Source: an uncultured Heliomicrobium sp.
Lineage (GTDB): Bacteria > Acidobacteriota > Blastocatellia > RBC074
Direction of reading: 5' to 3'
NCBI GenBank assembly: GCA_964570175.1
Contig: CAZMXG010000007.1
Span: 2,109-66,108, forward strand
DNA length: 64,000 nucleotides
Part shown: positions 40,626 through 47,392 of the stretch, in pieces
Layout: the number at the start of each line of letters is the position of its first letter
How positions within the stretch are numbered: the stretch's first letter is position 1
Notes under the pieces: model-generated
Databases searched by the model: none
What the model saw: only the letters and a program-made list of their open reading frames with translations
Told to the model about the DNA's origin: nothing
Made by a program: the position numbers and the translations under genes

Positions 40626-42170
40626 TTATCGCCGCTTCCACGCAAACCATTTTTTGATAATCCGGCTGACCGTTGGTGATAACCGAGTGCGGTTATAAAC
40701 ATCGCCGATGCGACGCAGCACTTCGGCCTGCGTGGGGTAAGGATGAATGGTTGAGGAAAGCGCGCTGAGTCTCAGCCCGTGTGTGATGGCCAGCGTTAAT
40801 TCGCTGATCATTTCTCCTGCATGCCGAGCGACAATCGTTCCGCCCAGAATCTTTCCTGACTTTCGGTCGTAATGAACGCGCGCAAAACCTTCGGTTTCCC
40901 CGTCCAAAATCGCCCGGTCGTTGTCGTCAAACTGTTCTGTGATTGTCGCGACATCGAACCCAGCCGTGCAAGCGTCAGCCTCATAAAATCCCACGTGAGC
41001 AACTTCAGGATCAGTGTACGTCACCCAGGGTATCACCAATTGGCTGGCTCTCGCCCTGCCAAAAAACAGCGCATTGCGTAGTACAGTTCTGGCCGTCGCA
41101 TCTGCGGCGTGCGTGAATTTGAACCGCGAACAGACATCGCCAGCAGCGTAAATTTTCGGATTCGTCGTTCGCAAAAAATCGTCAACCGTCACGCCTTCTT
41201 TCGAGTATTCCACACCCGCCGCTTCCAGGTTCAATCTTTCCACATTCGGCACCCGGCCAGCGGCTGACAAAATCAAATCGCAAATGGCTTCGCGCTGAGT
41301 CCCGGCTTGCTCGTACACGACAACTTTCTCTTCACTGCGAACTTCGACGCGAACGATCTTCACCCGGTTTTCGATTCTCATTCCTTCGCTGACCAACTGG
41401 CGATGAATCAACTCGACTGCATCGCGGTCTTCGCGCGGCAGAACGTGCTCAACATCATTCAGCAAGGTCACAGAACAACCAAACCGCTGAAAGGCCTGCG
41501 CCAGTTCGCAGCCAATCGGGCCACCGCCGATGACAACCATCCGGTGCGGCAGTTCCGTAATCGTGAAGATATTTTCGTTCGTGTAATAGCCGGTTTCTTT
41601 CAATCCCGGAATTGGCAATTCGGCGGGCCGTCCGCCTGTCGCAATCACGGCGCGATCAAATTCCAGCCGTTGCCCATCAACTTCGATTTCCGACGGGCTG
41701 ACAAAGCGCGCATCTCCAAGGAAAACTTCGACGTTGTATTTTTCCTTCATACGCACGGCTGCGTCATTGAAGCTGATTTGCGAACGAAGCTTGCGCATCC
41801 GCTCCATTGCGGCAGCAAAATCAATTTGCGGTTCGCCGGAAAGTTCTACGCCAAATTCGCGCGCCAGCCGCAGATCGTAAACCGCACGCGCCGCGCGAAG
41901 GACGGCTTTCGACGGAACGCAGCCCGTCACCAGACAATCTCCGCCCATCAACGCGCGTTCGATGATGGCGGCTTTTGCGCCAAGTCCTCCCGCGCCGCCT
42001 GCGCTGACCAGTCCGGCTGCGCCCGCACCAATCGCCACCAGATTGTATTTTCCGTTCAGAGTTGGATTGATGTGATTCGGCGGATGACAGTTTTCGATCA
42101 TCAACCGGTCGTGAGGATCGCCGCCCAAAGTGACATGGCCGATCGCGTCATCCTCAATCAGAGTTTTCAT
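40626..42170 (-). CDS. Class I pyridine nucleotide-disulfide oxidoreductase (dihydrolipoyl dehydrogenase / mercuric-reductase-like flavoprotein)
   Basis: FAD motif VAIGAGAAGL. Redox-active disulfide GGDCLVTGCVPSK. NAD motif and dimerisation domain present. No N-terminal HMA domain or C-terminal Cys pair, so not a canonical MerA. Confidence 0.75.
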   Translation of the reverse strand: MKTLIEDDAIGHVTLGGDPHDRLMIENCHPPNHINPTLNGKYNLVAIGAGAAGLVSAGGAGGLGAKAAIIERALMGGDCLVTGCVPSKAVLRAARAVYDLRLAREFGVELSGEPQIDFAAAMERMRKLRSQISFNDAAVRMKEKYNVEVFLGDARFVSPSEIEVDGQRLEFDRAVIATGGRPAELPIPGLKETGYYTNENIFTITELPHRMVVIGGGPIGCELAQAFQRFGCSVTLLNDVEHVLPREDRDAVELIHRQLVSEGMRIENRVKIVRVEVRSEEKVVVYEQAGTQREAICDLILSAAGRVPNVERLNLEAAGVEYSKEGVTVDDFLRTTNPKIYAAGDVCSRFKFTHAADATARTVLRNALFFGRARASQLVIPWVTYTDPEVAHVGFYEADACTAGFDVATITEQFDDNDRAILDGETEGFARVHYDRKSGKILGGTIVARHAGEMISELTLAITHGLRLSALSSTIHPYPTQAEVLRRIGDVYNRTRLSPTVSRIIKKWFAWKRR

Positions 42171-42194: not shown

Positions 42195-42911
42195 TCAAAG
42201 GGTTTTATGTTCCGCTAAGACTTTGACGCTTTCCTGCTCGGCCTGCGCCAGGGCTTTTCTGGCAATTAGCGTCACCAGGATGACAACAGCAATAGTCGCC
42301 AGCAGACCGACAATGCGCAGCACAAGTTCCCAAATTCCCACACCGCCTGAGCTTGCGCTCAAAGCATCACGCGCCGTCGCGCCGATGTACACATACAGAA
42401 ACGTGCCCGGCAACATGCCGATCAAATTCGCCAGCACGTAAGAACCGGTCCGCACCGTCGTCAATCCAAGCAGGTAATTCAGCAGCGTAAACGGGAACAC
42501 CGGGCTGAGCCGGACCAGCAGGACCATTTTGAACCCTTCGCGGCCAATGGCGCGATCAAGCGCGGAAAACTTTGGATTGCCCGCTGCCCACAATGCGACA
42601 CGTTCACGCAGAAAAGTTCGTGTCAGCCAGAAGGCACCCAGCGCGCCCAGATTCGCGCCAATCACGACAACCGCCAGCGCTTTCCAAAAGCTGAAAATGC
42701 CTGCGGCTCCGATTGTCAGCACGCTGCCAGGGATCAACAGCAAAGTCGTCGCGACATACAGCAACACATAGCAAACCGGAGCAAACACGCCGAACTCTTT
42801 GATCGAATTTTGCAGTTCGGTCAGCCAAATGCCGACAGGCAAAAAGCGCAGCAGGATTCCGAGTGCGACAACCAACAATACTACCAGCAGCCACAGCTTC
42901 TTATTTTTCAT
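42195..42911 (-). CDS. DedA / SNARE-associated (TVP38/TMEM64) family membrane protein
   Basis: 238 aa with 5-6 TM helices. Tightly linked, with a 24-bp gap, downstream of the flavoprotein. Confidence 0.75.
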   Translation of the reverse strand: MKNKKLWLLVVLLVVALGILLRFLPVGIWLTELQNSIKEFGVFAPVCYVLLYVATTLLLIPGSVLTIGAAGIFSFWKALAVVVIGANLGALGAFWLTRTFLRERVALWAAGNPKFSALDRAIGREGFKMVLLVRLSPVFPFTLLNYLLGLTTVRTGSYVLANLIGMLPGTFLYVYIGATARDALSASSGGVGIWELVLRIVGLLATIAVVILVTLIARKALAQAEQESVKVLAEHKTL

Positions 42912-42915
42912 GGCT

Positions 42916-43809
42916 TCACCTTTCAGCCAGATTTACCAATGTCGCGCCAAGAATACGTTTCTGCCTTCGTTCCTGAACAAATGCCACTGCTTTCAAATTT
43001 CCGCGTTTCCAATCTTTGCCGAGCATGACTGTCGTTTCTGTCTCGAACGGTTTGGTCGAACTGTGGACGCTTCCCAGCGAACGCAACTCACGAACAACTG
43101 CCGTGTGGTTTAACTTCCGCCCGGTATTTTCTCCACGCACAACCTGGGAGGAAAGATTGGTTTCGGTGATGGCCACCAAGACCTCTGCAATGTCGCCAGT
43201 ACTCAGCTTCGGTAATTTTGCTACGCTGACTTTCAATTTGACGGTCGAAGGAGTTTCCGCTTGCGCAGAATCAATCGCCACTTCGGCTTTGGGAATTTTT
43301 GCCAGACGTGCAATTGCCGTCCGGGCTTTTTCGGAATTGCTGCCAATAAATTCCGCCTGCCCATCCACGACCATTTGCGGCGTGTAAACGCCGTCGTTGT
43401 TGAACACGCTGGCATAGGCACCTTGCCGCGCGCTGAATGCTTCCGACGAAAACGGATCGGACCAGCCTATGTAATTCCAGTAATCAACATGCTCGCTCAG
43501 CGCGATGATTTCCACACCGGCAATCGGTTGTGTATTTTCCAATTCCGCCAGAACCTTATCGGCGGGCGGGCAGCTTGAACAACCTTCCGAAGTGAACAGC
43601 TCAACAATGACTGGCAAGCGTTTGCCTTCAACAGAAGGCACCTCAACTTCCAAAATCTCCGCTTCCGCGTTTGCGACGGAAGACGCTGATGACCAGTGAA
43701 TTGAACTCCGAAACAATTTCGCTCCAGCCAGCAAGGCAATCAGCAGAAACAACCCCGCAGCAATCGCAATTTTCATGTACGGACTCCCTGTTGATGTAGG
43801 TTGAAACAT
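42916..43809 (-). CDS. DUF1223-like secreted thioredoxin-fold protein
   Basis: Signal peptide. FTSEGCSSCPPAD motif characteristic of DUF1223. Confidence 0.55.
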   Translation of the reverse strand: MFQPTSTGSPYMKIAIAAGLFLLIALLAGAKLFRSSIHWSSASSVANAEAEILEVEVPSVEGKRLPVIVELFTSEGCSSCPPADKVLAELENTQPIAGVEIIALSEHVDYWNYIGWSDPFSSEAFSARQGAYASVFNNDGVYTPQMVVDGQAEFIGSNSEKARTAIARLAKIPKAEVAIDSAQAETPSTVKLKVSVAKLPKLSTGDIAEVLVAITETNLSSQVVRGENTGRKLNHTAVVRELRSLGSVHSSTKPFETETTVMLGKDWKRGNLKAVAFVQERRQKRILGATLVNLAER

Positions 43810-43896: not shown

Positions 43897-46070
43897 CTAT
43901 AAATATTCCCGATCTTCATAACACCAGCCCCATTCTTCACCGGGTACCAAAGATTTGATCAGCGGATGAGCCATCCGCTGATGGTGTGCAGTGGCGTGTT
44001 TATTTTTTGATGAATCGCAACAGCCGACGTGACCGCAGGTCAGGCACAATCGCAAATGCACCCAGGTGTCGCCTGAAATCAGGCATTCTTCACAGCCCCG
44101 CGCGCCGGGCACTACCGGGCGGATTTGGTCAAGGTGGGAACAAACGCTTTCTGAAACGGTTGGGGTGAACCTAACAGTCGTTTCGGTATCCACCGTAAAG
44201 CTGACGTTCTGTGGTTGCGGCAGGGAATTCCCTTCGTCGGACTTTTCTTTTCTCACCGGCATGGAGCATTGCGCCATCTTGTCCAAATGAACCTGGCAAA
44301 CGACGGGCGGTGTTTCGCCTTCTGCCGGTTGATGCAGCAAAGCGGCATATCCGCCGCTGCGAATCACTTTTTCGTTGGCTTCGATTTGTTCTGTCGGGAT
44401 TTCGTAATGCTCCATGACTTCCGTGAAAATGCGGGTGATGCTTTCCATCTCTTCGGCAATCGCACTATCCACACCGGCTTCAATCAGCGGACGCGCATCG
44501 CTGATGTAGCGCGTTCGAACGACGATCCGCATTTCCGGATTTAGCGTTTTAGCGACAGCCACAACACGATGCGTCATCGCCGGGTCGTCATCGGCAATCA
44601 CCATCATCCGTGCTCGCTCAACTCCGGCGTGTTCCAGAATGTTCCGTTTGCTATAATCGCCGCGCAACACGTTCAAGCCCGCCGCTTCGGCTTCGTTCGC
44701 GCCCCCTGGACTAAGCGTCGTGATAATGTAAGGAATGCCCGACCCGCTCAAGACGTGAACCAATCTGCGCGCCGCTTGCCCGTACCCTGCCACAATCACG
44801 TGATCATCTAAGTCCAGGAGTGGTTCTGGCAGCACGGTAGCTTCCATTCCGGCGATGATTCTGGCTGTGGTTTTCTTTTGAATCTTTCCCGCCAGCCGCG
44901 AACCGATCTGCATCAGAAACGGCGTCACAACCATCAGCACCACCGTTCCCGCGATAAACGCCTGCGAACCGGCAGCGTCCATCCCCGCAGGCGTCAACCC
45001 CACTTCACGCCCGGCACGTTCCAGCACAAAGGAAAATTCGCCAATTTGCGCCAGCATCAGCGCTGAAGCCGCCGTCACCGGCAATTTGTAGCCAAGCGCT
45101 CGCACGCTCAAACCTGTTGTTATGATCTTGATCAACAACGTCGCCGCAATGACTGCCAACGCCAATGGCAGATTCATTACCAGAAAGCGCAAATCCAACA
45201 GAATGCCGACCGAAACGAAAAAGATCGCGCTGAACAAAATCTGCAACGGCATGATTTCGCCCAAGGCGTGATGGCTGAACCGGCTTTCGCTGACCAGCAA
45301 CCCGGCAAGAAATGCGCCCAGCGATAGGCTGACTCCGGCCAAACTGGTCAAGTAAGCCGTGCCGAAACAAATGGCGATGACCGTCAACAGAAACAATTCC
45401 GGTGAACAGGTTTCGGCGACTTTTTCCAAAATCTTCGGCATCAGTTTGCGCGCAAAAAACAGCACCAGAAAAATGATGGCCAGCGCTTTGCCTAATGCCC
45501 AGACGATTCCAAGCGCCGAACCTCCTGTACCGCTGAGCATCGGAACCAGCAAGACCATGACGATGATCGCCAGGTCTTGGAAAATCAGCAGCCCCAGTCC
45601 AACCTGTCCCTGTTCGCTATTTGTTTCGCCCCGGTCGCCCAGCACTTTCAGGACGATGGCCGTGGAACTGAGTGCCACCAGAAAGCCTGTGAACAGCCCT
45701 GCGCGCCAATTGACCCCAAACAGTGTCAACAGCCCCATTGTCGCCAGCGAAGCCAGCACCACCTGAAGCCCGCCGCCGACAAAGATCAGACGCTTGATGC
45801 TGGCCAGTTTTTCCAGGCTGAATTCAATACCGATGGTGAACAGCAGCAAAATGACGCCGATTTCGGCGGCGTTATCTACCAGTTCACGATTACTGACCAA
45901 CCCCAACGCGTGGGGCCCGATCAACACACCAGCCAATAGAAAGCCGACAATCGGCACCAGCCGCAACCGAAAACTGATGTACGCGATGACTGCACCCGCA
46001 ACCATCAGGGCAACGGCATCTGTCAGGTAAGCCGGAACCGTTCCGGCTGCAAAGATTGTCGGCAAGCTCA
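43897..46070 (-). CDS. CPA2-family cation:proton antiporter (Kef-type) fused to TrkA-N/TrkA-C and a C-terminal UBP-type zinc finger
   Basis: 12-TM Na+/H+-exchanger domain. Rossmann TrkA-N (HVIVAGYGQAARRLVHVL). C-terminal zf-UBP-like CxxC...CxxCGHVGCC...H...H segment (GCEECLISGDTWVHLRLCLTCGHVGCCDSSKNKHATAHHQRMAHP). Start set at the MSLPTI ATG at 46070. Confidence 0.7.
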
Positions 46071-46324
46071 TCGTCAAAAATTTTTCCTTTGTTGAATGCG
46101 TTTGTCGTGACCGCATTCGATCATGCCTTAGCTTTCCCACGCTCGGCAACGAAGAACTCTGCCACTTCTATTGAAACACCGGCACCAACTTACGCCACAG
46201 TCCGCGCATAATCTGTACGGCAACAGACTCACCCTTTCTTGGTTTCTGATCACTGCGGACTTAAACTGCCAACGCCTCTTTGGTTCGTCAAAACCTTTCT
46301 ATTAACCATTCAGAGGGTATTTCG

Positions 46325-46819
46325 ATGTTCTATTTTTTGTGCATCCTGATGCTGTTGATGCAACAGCCTGCAAACGATGCTGCCAACTTTCAATCTGATA
46401 AAAATCCTGCTGATCTGATCGTGCTTTCCCATAGCTGGAAAATGATTCGGGAAGAAAGCCGTCCGTCAACCGCTTGGGATGAATTTGGAAATGCCCAACA
46501 CCCCGCTGCGCTATCGCCGGATTCTTATCGTTACAAATACGACGTAAAAGTCCGGAACATCGGCGCAAAAGCGATCAAGGCAGTTCAATGGCGGTATGTC
46601 TTCACTACCCGAACCGGCCAATCGTCGTTTGAAGTCTTTAGTAAAGAGAGAGTCTTACCCGGACAAAGTAAAAAACTCGGGCTTGGTCAGGTGAATCCAC
46701 CTGGGCCGCCGCGTTCCGTCAATCAAGTTGGAAAGCCTGTTCCCATAAAGGACCTCATGGAACACGTTGTGATTTTATGCATCGAATATACCGACGGGTC
46801 GGTTTGGAAAAGATTATAA
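46325..46819 (+). CDS. Small secreted hypothetical protein
   Basis: MFYFLCILMLLMQQPA signal. 164 aa. No recognised domain. Confidence 0.3.
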   Translation: MFYFLCILMLLMQQPANDAANFQSDKNPADLIVLSHSWKMIREESRPSTAWDEFGNAQHPAALSPDSYRYKYDVKVRNIGAKAIKAVQWRYVFTTRTGQSSFEVFSKERVLPGQSKKLGLGQVNPPGPPRSVNQVGKPVPIKDLMEHVVILCIEYTDGSVWKRL

Positions 46820-46822
46820 AGT

Positions 46823-47392
46823 TTAGCTGATCCGTCCGGCTCCTAAGACAATCGCGCTGTAAGCAACCGCGACATCTGCCCCTCGGTTCGCATACGAATG
46901 TTTTTGATCGCCGCGAAACACCACAACATCGCCTGGCGACAATGAATACTTTTCGCCGGACACGACCAGTTCCACGTGGCCGGATTCGCAAGCCAGATAT
47001 TCCCGTGTTCCCATTCGATGCGGAACGCCAGTCATTTGCGCGCCCGGCGGCAATTCCATGCGGTCAAGTTCCATCCCTTGCAAATAATCCGGCAGCAGTT
47101 TGCGGATCAGCACGCCTCCGCGCCGTTGTTTGGGGATGGTGTCGGCCGGATGGAGTTTCGCCTGCGCTTTCGGCGGACTGATCAATTCTTCGACAGGAAC
47201 CTGGAGTGCAGCGGCGACTTTGGCCAGCACGGACACCGTTGGGTTCGCCGTGCCTGATTCCAGATTCGACCACGTGGGCCGCGGCACTCCCGACAACCGA
47301 GAAAGCTGTTCCTGTGACAGATTCCGGCTTTGCCGCAACTGTTTGATGTTTTGCGCAATGTAACCCGCCAGCTTGTCTTCCATACCAGCCAA
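46823..47392 (-). CDS. XRE-family HTH transcriptional regulator with C-terminal cupin domain
   Basis: HTH LSQEQLSRLSGVPRPTWSNLESG. C-terminal cupin beta-barrel (GHVELVVSGEKYSLSPGDVVVF). Confidence 0.7.
   Translation of the reverse strand: MAGMEDKLAGYIAQNIKQLRQSRNLSQEQLSRLSGVPRPTWSNLESGTANPTVSVLAKVAAALQVPVEELISPPKAQAKLHPADTIPKQRRGGVLIRKLLPDYLQGMELDRMELPPGAQMTGVPHRMGTREYLACESGHVELVVSGEKYSLSPGDVVVFRGDQKHSYANRGADVAVAYSAIVLGAGRIS

Follow-up and report, generated by a model that had tools for sequence, protein, structure and literature searches.

In a 64,000-nucleotide stretch of DNA from an uncultured Heliomicrobium sp. (Acidobacteriota; Blastocatellia), called the window here, a gene on the minus strand encodes a predicted Kef/YbaL-like CPA2 K+/H+ exchanger that ends in a bacterial-type zf-UBP zinc finger. 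The protein is predicted not to be a glutathione-gated KefB or KefC, because the glutathione site is not conserved and the equivalog scores are far under their cut-offs; the K+ site is kept. The leading explanation, to which we give somewhat less than an even chance, is that the finger is a sensor that replaces glutathione gating and reports the redox, thiol, or electrophile state of the cell to gate K+ efflux.

Kef systems release K+ as valves under electrophile stress (PMC11150392). They are the textbook case of a K+ efflux that is gated by a ligand and shields bacteria from electrophiles, and the only Kef gating chemistry understood so far is the binding of glutathione and AMP to the KTN domain. 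The closest structure for the finger is that of RPA1320 from Rhodopseudomonas palustris (PDB 2IDA), a stand-alone protein whose nuclear magnetic resonance structure was released by structural genomics in 2006. In the literature searched, no functional study of bacterial zf-UBP, of 2IDA/RPA1320, or of the DUF5996 family that accompanies some finger genes was found; one 2011 comparative paper may discuss the family. A 2008 survey of mini-proteins lists the bacterial zf-UBP family (PMC2602986), and in a 2014 paper 2IDA appears solely as part of a structural overlay (PMC3988567). Both the architecture and the bacterial finger family are already in public databases, the antiporter under a generic name. 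The combination of antiporter and finger is a testable lead to a gating mechanism and to the role of the zf-UBP fold before ubiquitin, but the sequence record as such holds no surprise.

The gene is a single uninterrupted open reading frame (ORF) at window positions 43897-46071 on the minus strand, with a product of 724 amino acids. The stop codon occupies 43897-43899, and the frame is open up to 46149. The ATG at 46071-46069, with AAAGGAA in front of it, is the likeliest start; other in-frame starts are an ATG at 46116 and a TTG at 46149. The initial annotation, made from the sequence of the window, had given the extent as 43897-46070; the gene is real, and its upper end was set one base short of the ATG that begins at 46071. 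Public assemblies already hold an identical 724-residue protein (P0121; locus L001). The gene and its parts are as follows.

43897..46071, minus strand: antiporter gene, CPA2 (Kef-like) with TrkA_N and a C-terminal bacterial-type zf-UBP (ORF, Pfam, identical public protein P0121)
44926..45993, minus strand: Na_H_Exchanger membrane domain, residues 27-382 (Pfam PF00999, 7.7e-50; KefC 8BXG, E 1.4e-58)
45574..45579, minus strand: QD ion-binding motif, Q165-D166, equivalent to KefC Q155-D156 (translation, KefC alignment, family alignment A1)
44458..44799, minus strand: TrkA_N (KTN/RCK) Rossmann domain, residues 425-538, with glycine motif G-Y-G-Q-A-A (Pfam PF02254, 7.9e-20)
44143..44349, minus strand: linker, residues 575-643 (69 amino acids), in place of the TrkA_C of most relatives (alignment A1, no PF02080 match)
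43900..44142, minus strand: bacterial-type zf-UBP domain, residues 644-724 (Pfam, PDB 2IDA, conservation)
44014..44025, minus strand: G683-C684-C685-D686, in place of the HDAC6-type C-G-R-Y clamp (translation; HDAC6, USP49, and USP16 alignments; conservation)

The Pfam domains and the homologue set bear out the architecture first proposed, a Kef-like CPA2 exchanger followed by TrkA_N and a C-terminal zf-UBP. The membrane core had been described as having 12 transmembrane segments, and alignment with KefC gives a 13-segment fold instead. The "TrkA domains" of the same description reduce to TrkA_N, the sole detectable one: the antiporter has no PF02080 (TrkA_C) match in the Pfam search, and alignment A1 places a deletion of about 70-80 residues at the TrkA_C position relative to the family members that carry the domain. 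This deletion is common to the window protein and its nearest clade (719-745 amino acids); the rest of the family keeps TrkA_C. The linker found there ends in a conserved "VDTExxV.F.P" lead-in to the finger.

The transporter core places the protein among the Kef-type exchangers. Escherichia coli KefC (8BXG) aligns over residues 18-546 with an expect value of 1.4e-58, and the score for the CPA2 model TIGR00932, 213.7 bits, is slightly under the cut-off of 238.3. The equivalog models fit far less well, with a score of 289 against a cut-off of 752 for the NCBIfam KefC model, and scores for KefB and YbaL that are also far under their cut-offs. The cryo-electron microscopy study of KefC assigns roles in ion binding to S125, T127, the Q155-D156 "QD" motif, and K307 (PMC11150392). 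In the alignment, S125 and T127 correspond to S135 and T137 of the window protein, Q155-D156 to Q165-D166, and K307 to K315; all five are invariant in the family (alignment A1). The glutathione site of KefC is formed by R409, Q412, R416, R498, and R516, with F441 as a switch residue (PMC11150392). Four of the five contacts are substituted in the KefC alignment (R409 by Q432, Q412 by R435, R416 by H439, and R516 by A539), and R521, the equivalent of R498, is the sole one kept. The F441 switch has become A464, and the AMP contacts D429 and H430 have become T452 and L453. By homology to KefC, the C-terminus of the antiporter, and with it the finger, is predicted to be cytoplasmic.

The assignment of the finger is secure by several measures. 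Its Pfam zf-UBP (PF02148) match covers residues 660-723 with an expect value of 1.6e-11; a profile search of this kind had been proposed as a check, and the score of 44.7 bits is well above the gathering cut-off of 22.7. The C-terminal 81 residues match PDB 2IDA with an expect value of 2.9e-29, far beyond chance, and the eukaryotic fingers of HDAC6, USP16, USP20, USP33, and USP49 match more weakly. The finger is 60-75% identical to stand-alone proteins, and for those from unrelated phyla the range is 65-75%. The Cys/His pattern quoted in the initial annotation is exact (C660..C663, W670.H672, C676..C679-G-H-V-G-C684-C685, H692, H696-H697, H702), and its residues, with the exception of H697, are fully or almost fully conserved across 119 stand-alone and 120 fused homologues, so that the annotation holds on both the profile match and the conservation in orthologues. 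About 27 of the 81 positions are invariant in these 239 homologues, and most of them are still kept at 89% or above in 149 more divergent representatives.

Twelve candidate ligands, C644, H646, C660, C663, C676, C679, C684, H692, H696, H702, C717, and D720, are conserved at 89-100%, and the finger is predicted to be a three-zinc treble-clef module built on them. From HDAC6 and USP alignments and the ligand sets of HDAC6, site 1 is probably C644, H646, C717, and D720; site 2, C660, C663, C684, and H692; and site 3, C676, C679, H696, and H702. Conservation extends beyond the ligands. W670, H672, R674, H681, C685, D686, and S688 are also invariant or near-invariant (C685 100%, R674 and S688 both 99%, D686 95%, H672 90%, H681 82%). 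C685 is surplus to the three zinc sites despite its complete conservation, and an H672-L-R674-L insertion behind the pocket tryptophan is nearly invariant. An AlphaFold2 model of the 81-residue domain, made from a 26-sequence alignment, was poor, with a predicted local distance difference test score (pLDDT) of 57.9, and was not used for pocket geometry. With this model, Foldseek returned 2IDA and HDAC6 fingers as the top matches at template modelling scores of about 0.49 or less.

In eukaryotic zf-UBP domains, the conserved pocket receives the C-terminal tail of ubiquitin, and the bacterial version has been remodelled at precisely this place. The aromatic walls are kept: W670 is conserved at 100%, W716 at 89-97%, and Y718 is Tyr or Phe. 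These are presumably the equivalents of HDAC6 W1143, W1182, and Y1184, a numbering consistent with a primer sequence in the HDAC6 paper. The zinc-ligand cysteine is followed by G-R-Y in HDAC6 and USP49 and by G-R-N in USP16; the bacterial family has C685-D686-x-S688. In both possible alignment registers, the position of the clamp arginine is Asp or Ser and that of the tyrosine is Ser, and among about 390 family members the clamp positions (D686/S687 or S687/S688) are never Arg/Tyr. In HDAC6, R1155 and Y1156 are essential for holding the RLRGG tail, and the R1155A/Y1156A double mutant does not bind (PMC12000391). The bacterial pocket therefore seems to keep its aromatic walls and to have exchanged the clamp for an invariant and apparently non-structural Cys685-Asp686-x-Ser688 together with the inserted His672-Leu-Arg674.

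The family is large, the window copy is unremarkable within it, and the fusion is not rare. Among the 120 best full-length homologues (57-100% identity), PF00999, PF02254, and PF02148 occur together in all 120, most with PF02080 as well; the question of how often the fusion occurs, raised with the initial annotation, is answered by this count. These proteins are 780-820 amino acids long, come mainly from Blastocatellia/Pyrinomonadaceae, and bear merely the NCBI name "cation:proton antiporter". The CPA2-TrkA_N-zf-UBP architecture is a coherent and widespread orthologous family. When one genome per species was scanned with a sequence pattern, at least 598 species proved to have the bacterial-type finger. 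Among the matches listed are Acidobacteriota, Chloroflexota, Actinomycetota, Cyanobacteria, Planctomycetota, Nitrospirota, Spirochaetia, Myxococcota, Verrucomicrobiota, Proteobacteria, and Methanosarcinales. Locus analyses covered the best 80 of the matches from these species. The CPA2-TrkA_N(-TrkA_C)-zf-UBP fusion accounts for six of the 80 loci (Acidobacteriota three, Chloroflexota two, Phycisphaerae one) and is known from three phyla, Acidobacteriota, Chloroflexota, and Planctomycetota. Stand-alone finger genes of 84-160 codons occupy about 67 of the 80, and most members of the family are 85-110 amino acids long.

HMMER, run exhaustively against 1.84 billion cluster representatives, returned 2638 clusters at E <= 1e-3. 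The finger is joined to TrkA_N in 16 of the 41 longer cluster representatives, eight of these with a detectable Na_H_Exchanger; the other fusions in this set are to TerC (two) and to MFS, LtrA, LPG_synthase_TM, PNPOx_N (a PNPOx-like flavin domain), and diadenylate cyclase (one each). In a Blastocatellaceae metagenome-assembled genome (L051:1348-2340, plus strand), zf-UBP residues 21-81 stand N-terminal to a DacZ-like DAC domain at residues 169-293. This protein would be a second link of the finger to the homeostasis of K+ and cyclic di-AMP (c-di-AMP). The fusions to transporters and to the diadenylate cyclase suggest that the finger is a portable input module of the cytoplasm, carried for the most part by membrane transporters and in two cases by machinery for K+ homeostasis.

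Stand-alone fingers have recurrent neighbours of their own. ORFs within 3 kb of the 67 stand-alone finger genes were clustered, annotated, and remapped by tblastn to the 80 loci. In 19 of the 80, from several phyla, the finger gene adjoins a gene for a protein of 550-640 amino acids that combines an N-terminal receiver (REC) domain, or a cyclic-nucleotide-binding (cNMP) domain, with a thioredoxin-reductase-like (TrxR-like) flavoprotein body (for example, L079:2643-4532, L014:6318-7955, and L009:2206-3900). The L009 locus is a CPA2 fusion, with the TrxR-like gene divergent from the antiporter. A bona fide trxB lies directly upstream of the finger gene in seven loci, all from Terriglobia. DUF5996 stands beside the finger gene in 13, usually 30-70 nucleotides downstream on the same strand, and directly after the CPA2 fusion gene at L041; the flavoprotein and DUF5996 sets of loci are disjoint. 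The long TrxR-like partner was considered as an enzyme that re-reduces a disulfide in the finger, and this role was ruled out because the partner lacks the CxxC disulfide, having T-E-A-x-x-C for C-A-T-C-D; it resembles the ferredoxin-reductase branch. Around the fused genes, a thioredoxin gene follows orthologue P0129 and a TerC gene follows orthologue P0145.

A sensor that takes the place of glutathione gating would bring these observations together. The cysteine-rich zinc module would report the redox, thiol, or electrophile state of the cytoplasm, and would be triggered when the pocket cysteine or the zinc-thiolate sites are oxidised, alkylated, or stripped of metal. The change would be relayed to the KTN dimer and release the transporter, so that K+ efflux, H+ influx, and cytoplasmic acidification follow as in the classical Kef protective response. 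Stand-alone fingers would act with a partner, either the REC/cNMP-TrxR-like flavoprotein or DUF5996. The loss of the glutathione site, the retention of the K+ site, the presence of the finger on other transporters, the flavoprotein link, and the remodelled pocket all speak for such a sensor. Several points weigh against it. The mechanism is deduced from the sequence and its genomic setting. The flavoprotein that most often accompanies the finger has no CxxC disulfide, the adjacency of trxB is restricted to Terriglobia and could be lineage synteny, and DUF5996, paired with the finger at 13 loci, has no recognisable redox fold. The neighbours in the window are not conserved with the antiporter beyond close relatives, and the poor AlphaFold2 domain model (pLDDT 58) gives no basis for pocket geometry. 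Zinc fingers are, moreover, often purely structural or used for protein-protein contacts.

A broader form of the sensor hypothesis is possible and carries less weight. The finger may be a phylum-spanning sensory module in which an invariant, reactive Cys-Asp pair, seated in what is the ubiquitin-tail pocket of eukaryotic homologues, responds to a small cationic, redox, or electrophile signal. K+ outputs would be under the direct control of the finger, through Kef-like exchange here and through c-di-AMP synthesis in the sister fusion, and in its stand-alone form it would work with the REC-TrxR-like flavoprotein or DUF5996.

Four other explanations were weighed, and they rank in the order fourth metal site, charge-inverted pocket, structural cap, and diglycine tail. 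The first is unlikely, though it is the best of the four; zinc had been named as a second possible gating signal in the initial annotation. H672, H681, C685, and D686 would form a fourth, exchangeable site in the former tail pocket, and Zn2+ or a thiophilic metal bound there would gate the transporter. The 16 conserved potential ligands, compared with the 12 needed for three HDAC6-type sites, would be accounted for in this way. TerC is a metal exporter, and the finger is fused to TerC-family proteins and borne by an orthologue, P0145, that a TerC gene follows. However, the conservation of H672 (90%) and H681 (82%) is lower than expected of a dedicated site, and metal stress would not obviously call for a K+/H+ exchanger as its output.

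It is less probable again that the pocket docks a cationic ligand or peptide. The exchange of Arg for Asp would invert the charge of the pocket, which could then bind an amine or ammonium group and couple this signal to K+ homeostasis. The ligand might be a protein N-terminus, a Lys or Arg side chain, a polyamine, or a compatible solute. In favour of such a pocket, the walls W670, W716, and Y718 are kept, and Asp or Ser has taken the place of the Arg that binds the carboxylate. The role of c-di-AMP in osmotic and K+ control is established, and fusions of the finger involve two arms of that control, a K+ exchanger in one case and a diadenylate cyclase in the other. Identity of about 70% across phyla also suggests a conserved ligand or partner surface. 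The proposal is nevertheless derived from residue chemistry only, with no candidate ligand from context, and leaves the flavoprotein and DUF5996 neighbourhoods unexplained.

More doubtful still is a passive role, in which the finger is a zinc-stapled cap or an oligomerisation or docking element for the KTN domain and senses nothing. Many treble-clef fingers are structural or serve constitutive protein contacts, and the fused proteins end exactly at the conserved "ETYL" terminus of the finger. A mere cap is hard to reconcile with about 70% identity across phyla, with a gene that is mostly free-standing and has conserved partners, and with invariant pocket residues that are not ligands.

Gating of the antiporter by a diglycine-terminated peptide, as the initial annotation proposed, or by a ubiquitin-like protein bound to the finger is very improbable and not supported, in spite of true homology to the ubiquitin-binding fingers of HDAC6, USP16, and USP49 and of the retained aromatic pocket residues, because the Arg-Tyr clamp that is essential in HDAC6 (PMC12000391) is C-D-x-S in every family member and because, within 6 kb on either side of the 80 zf-UBP loci, the small ORFs ending in GG (24 of 3655) form no family and no E1-like or JAB-like neighbour family recurs.

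The genes around the antiporter in the window are the following.

42916..43809, minus strand: DUF1223 protein with a hydrophobic N-terminal segment and a C-S-S-C motif, first downstream gene (Pfam, 3.1e-61)
42195..42911, minus strand: DedA/VTT-domain membrane protein, second downstream gene (Pfam, 1.5e-25)
40626..42170, minus strand: class-I pyridine-nucleotide-disulfide oxidoreductase (Pyr_redox_2) with dimerisation domain, third downstream gene (Pfam; NCBIfam NF004991, 721 bits against a cut-off of 620)
46823..47392, minus strand: HTH_3 and cupin regulator, upstream, syntenic in the close clade (Pfam, synteny)

The antiporter, DUF1223, DedA, and flavoprotein genes run one after another on one strand, separated by 87, 4, and 24 nucleotides. 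This order is kept in relatives whose antiporters are 100% and 93% identical. In an 84% relative, DUF1223 is gone and the DedA-flavoprotein pair is still together; in an 82% relative, the three downstream genes are replaced by a thioredoxin gene and an MgtC-like gene. Relatives at or below 78% share no neighbours and have a TerC, EgtB/EgtD, or HbpS-like gene instead. The DUF1223-DedA-flavoprotein cluster is therefore genus-level synteny, and a conserved functional unit of these genes with the antiporter is ruled out by the comparison across relatives. The redox and ion-homeostasis cluster put forward earlier is partly supported: it is not conserved beyond close relatives, and independently of it the zf-UBP family has a recurrent genomic link to TrxR-like flavoproteins. 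The DUF1223 product is probably an exported, extracytoplasmic thioredoxin-fold protein, out of reach of a cytoplasmic finger, because of its hydrophobic N-terminus and C-S-S-C motif.

Distant orthologues have varied neighbours (L006:10482-12672; L089:5584-5979; L004:10502-11272). They include ergothioneine-synthesis-like genes (Methyltransf_33 with DinB_2/FGE-sulfatase), an HbpS-like gene 22 nucleotides upstream, and a TerC gene downstream; TerC is thus both a neighbour of a distant orthologue and a fusion partner of the finger. Thiol-related neighbours recur around orthologues, as an anecdotal observation. Between the HTH-cupin regulator and the antiporter, the window has a 179-residue ORF on the plus strand (46280-46819) with a hydrophobic N-terminus and no Pfam match. 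The 93% relative (L087) has at this position a gene of 164 codons, also without a Pfam match, and the 82% relative (L002:5878-7663) has an ApaLI-like restriction enzyme and an N6/N4 methyltransferase between the regulator and the antiporter. No tRNA gene lies in the 64-kb window, and no Rfam family reaches the gathering threshold there; a search for a second zf-UBP, TrxR-like, or DUF5996 gene in the window also found none. Promoter and terminator consensus scans found no more sites than in shuffled sequence.

Finding what the finger binds would explain the control of K+ efflux in a large group of soil bacteria (Acidobacteriota and Chloroflexota) and would give a function to a large orphan protein family of at least 598 species. 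It would also show what the zf-UBP fold did before it was recruited to ubiquitin in eukaryotes. If the sensory-module interpretation is true, the finger would stand for a new class of sensors that gate transporters and for a function that the fold had in prokaryotes as an antecedent of the eukaryotic one.

Among known systems, the window protein resembles KefC in its K+ site, in the H-A-L part of the regulatory loop, and in the KTN Rossmann domain fused at the C-terminal side of the transporter. Unlike KefC, KefB, and YbaL, it does not conserve the glutathione site and has an extra C-terminal zf-UBP, and unlike the KefB and KefC systems, it has no KefF/KefG-type partner gene nearby. As a CPA2 K+/H+ exchanger presumably under the control of an RCK domain, it is also like the c-di-AMP-regulated systems CpaA and KhtTU. 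In CpaA and KhtTU, c-di-AMP is bound by a domain of the TrkA_C (RCK_C) type; most members of the family keep TrkA_C as these proteins do, and the window protein itself is without it, which also sets it apart from RCK regulators of the octameric-ring type, where TrkA_C follows TrkA_N.

The finger is like the eukaryotic zf-UBP domains compared here (HDAC6, USP5, USP16, and USP49, with the non-binding USP20 and USP33) in belonging to the same Pfam family and in sharing with HDAC6 the three-site pattern of C-x-H, two CxxC, C, three H, and C. It differs from them in the four-residue H-L-R-L insertion after the pocket tryptophan, in an Asp rather than a Cys as the last ligand of site 1, and in residing in a host without a ubiquitin system. 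With fingers of the HDAC6/USP5 type it shares the aromatic walls, whereas the Arg-Tyr clamp is replaced by C-D-x-S. Its closest counterparts are the stand-alone bacterial fingers such as RPA1320/2IDA, which have the same invariant residues, including G-C-C-D and W-x-H-L-R. Unlike these, the window finger is tethered to a transporter, and the fused versions are marked by an "IDTE..V.F.P" lead-in and an "ETYL" end.

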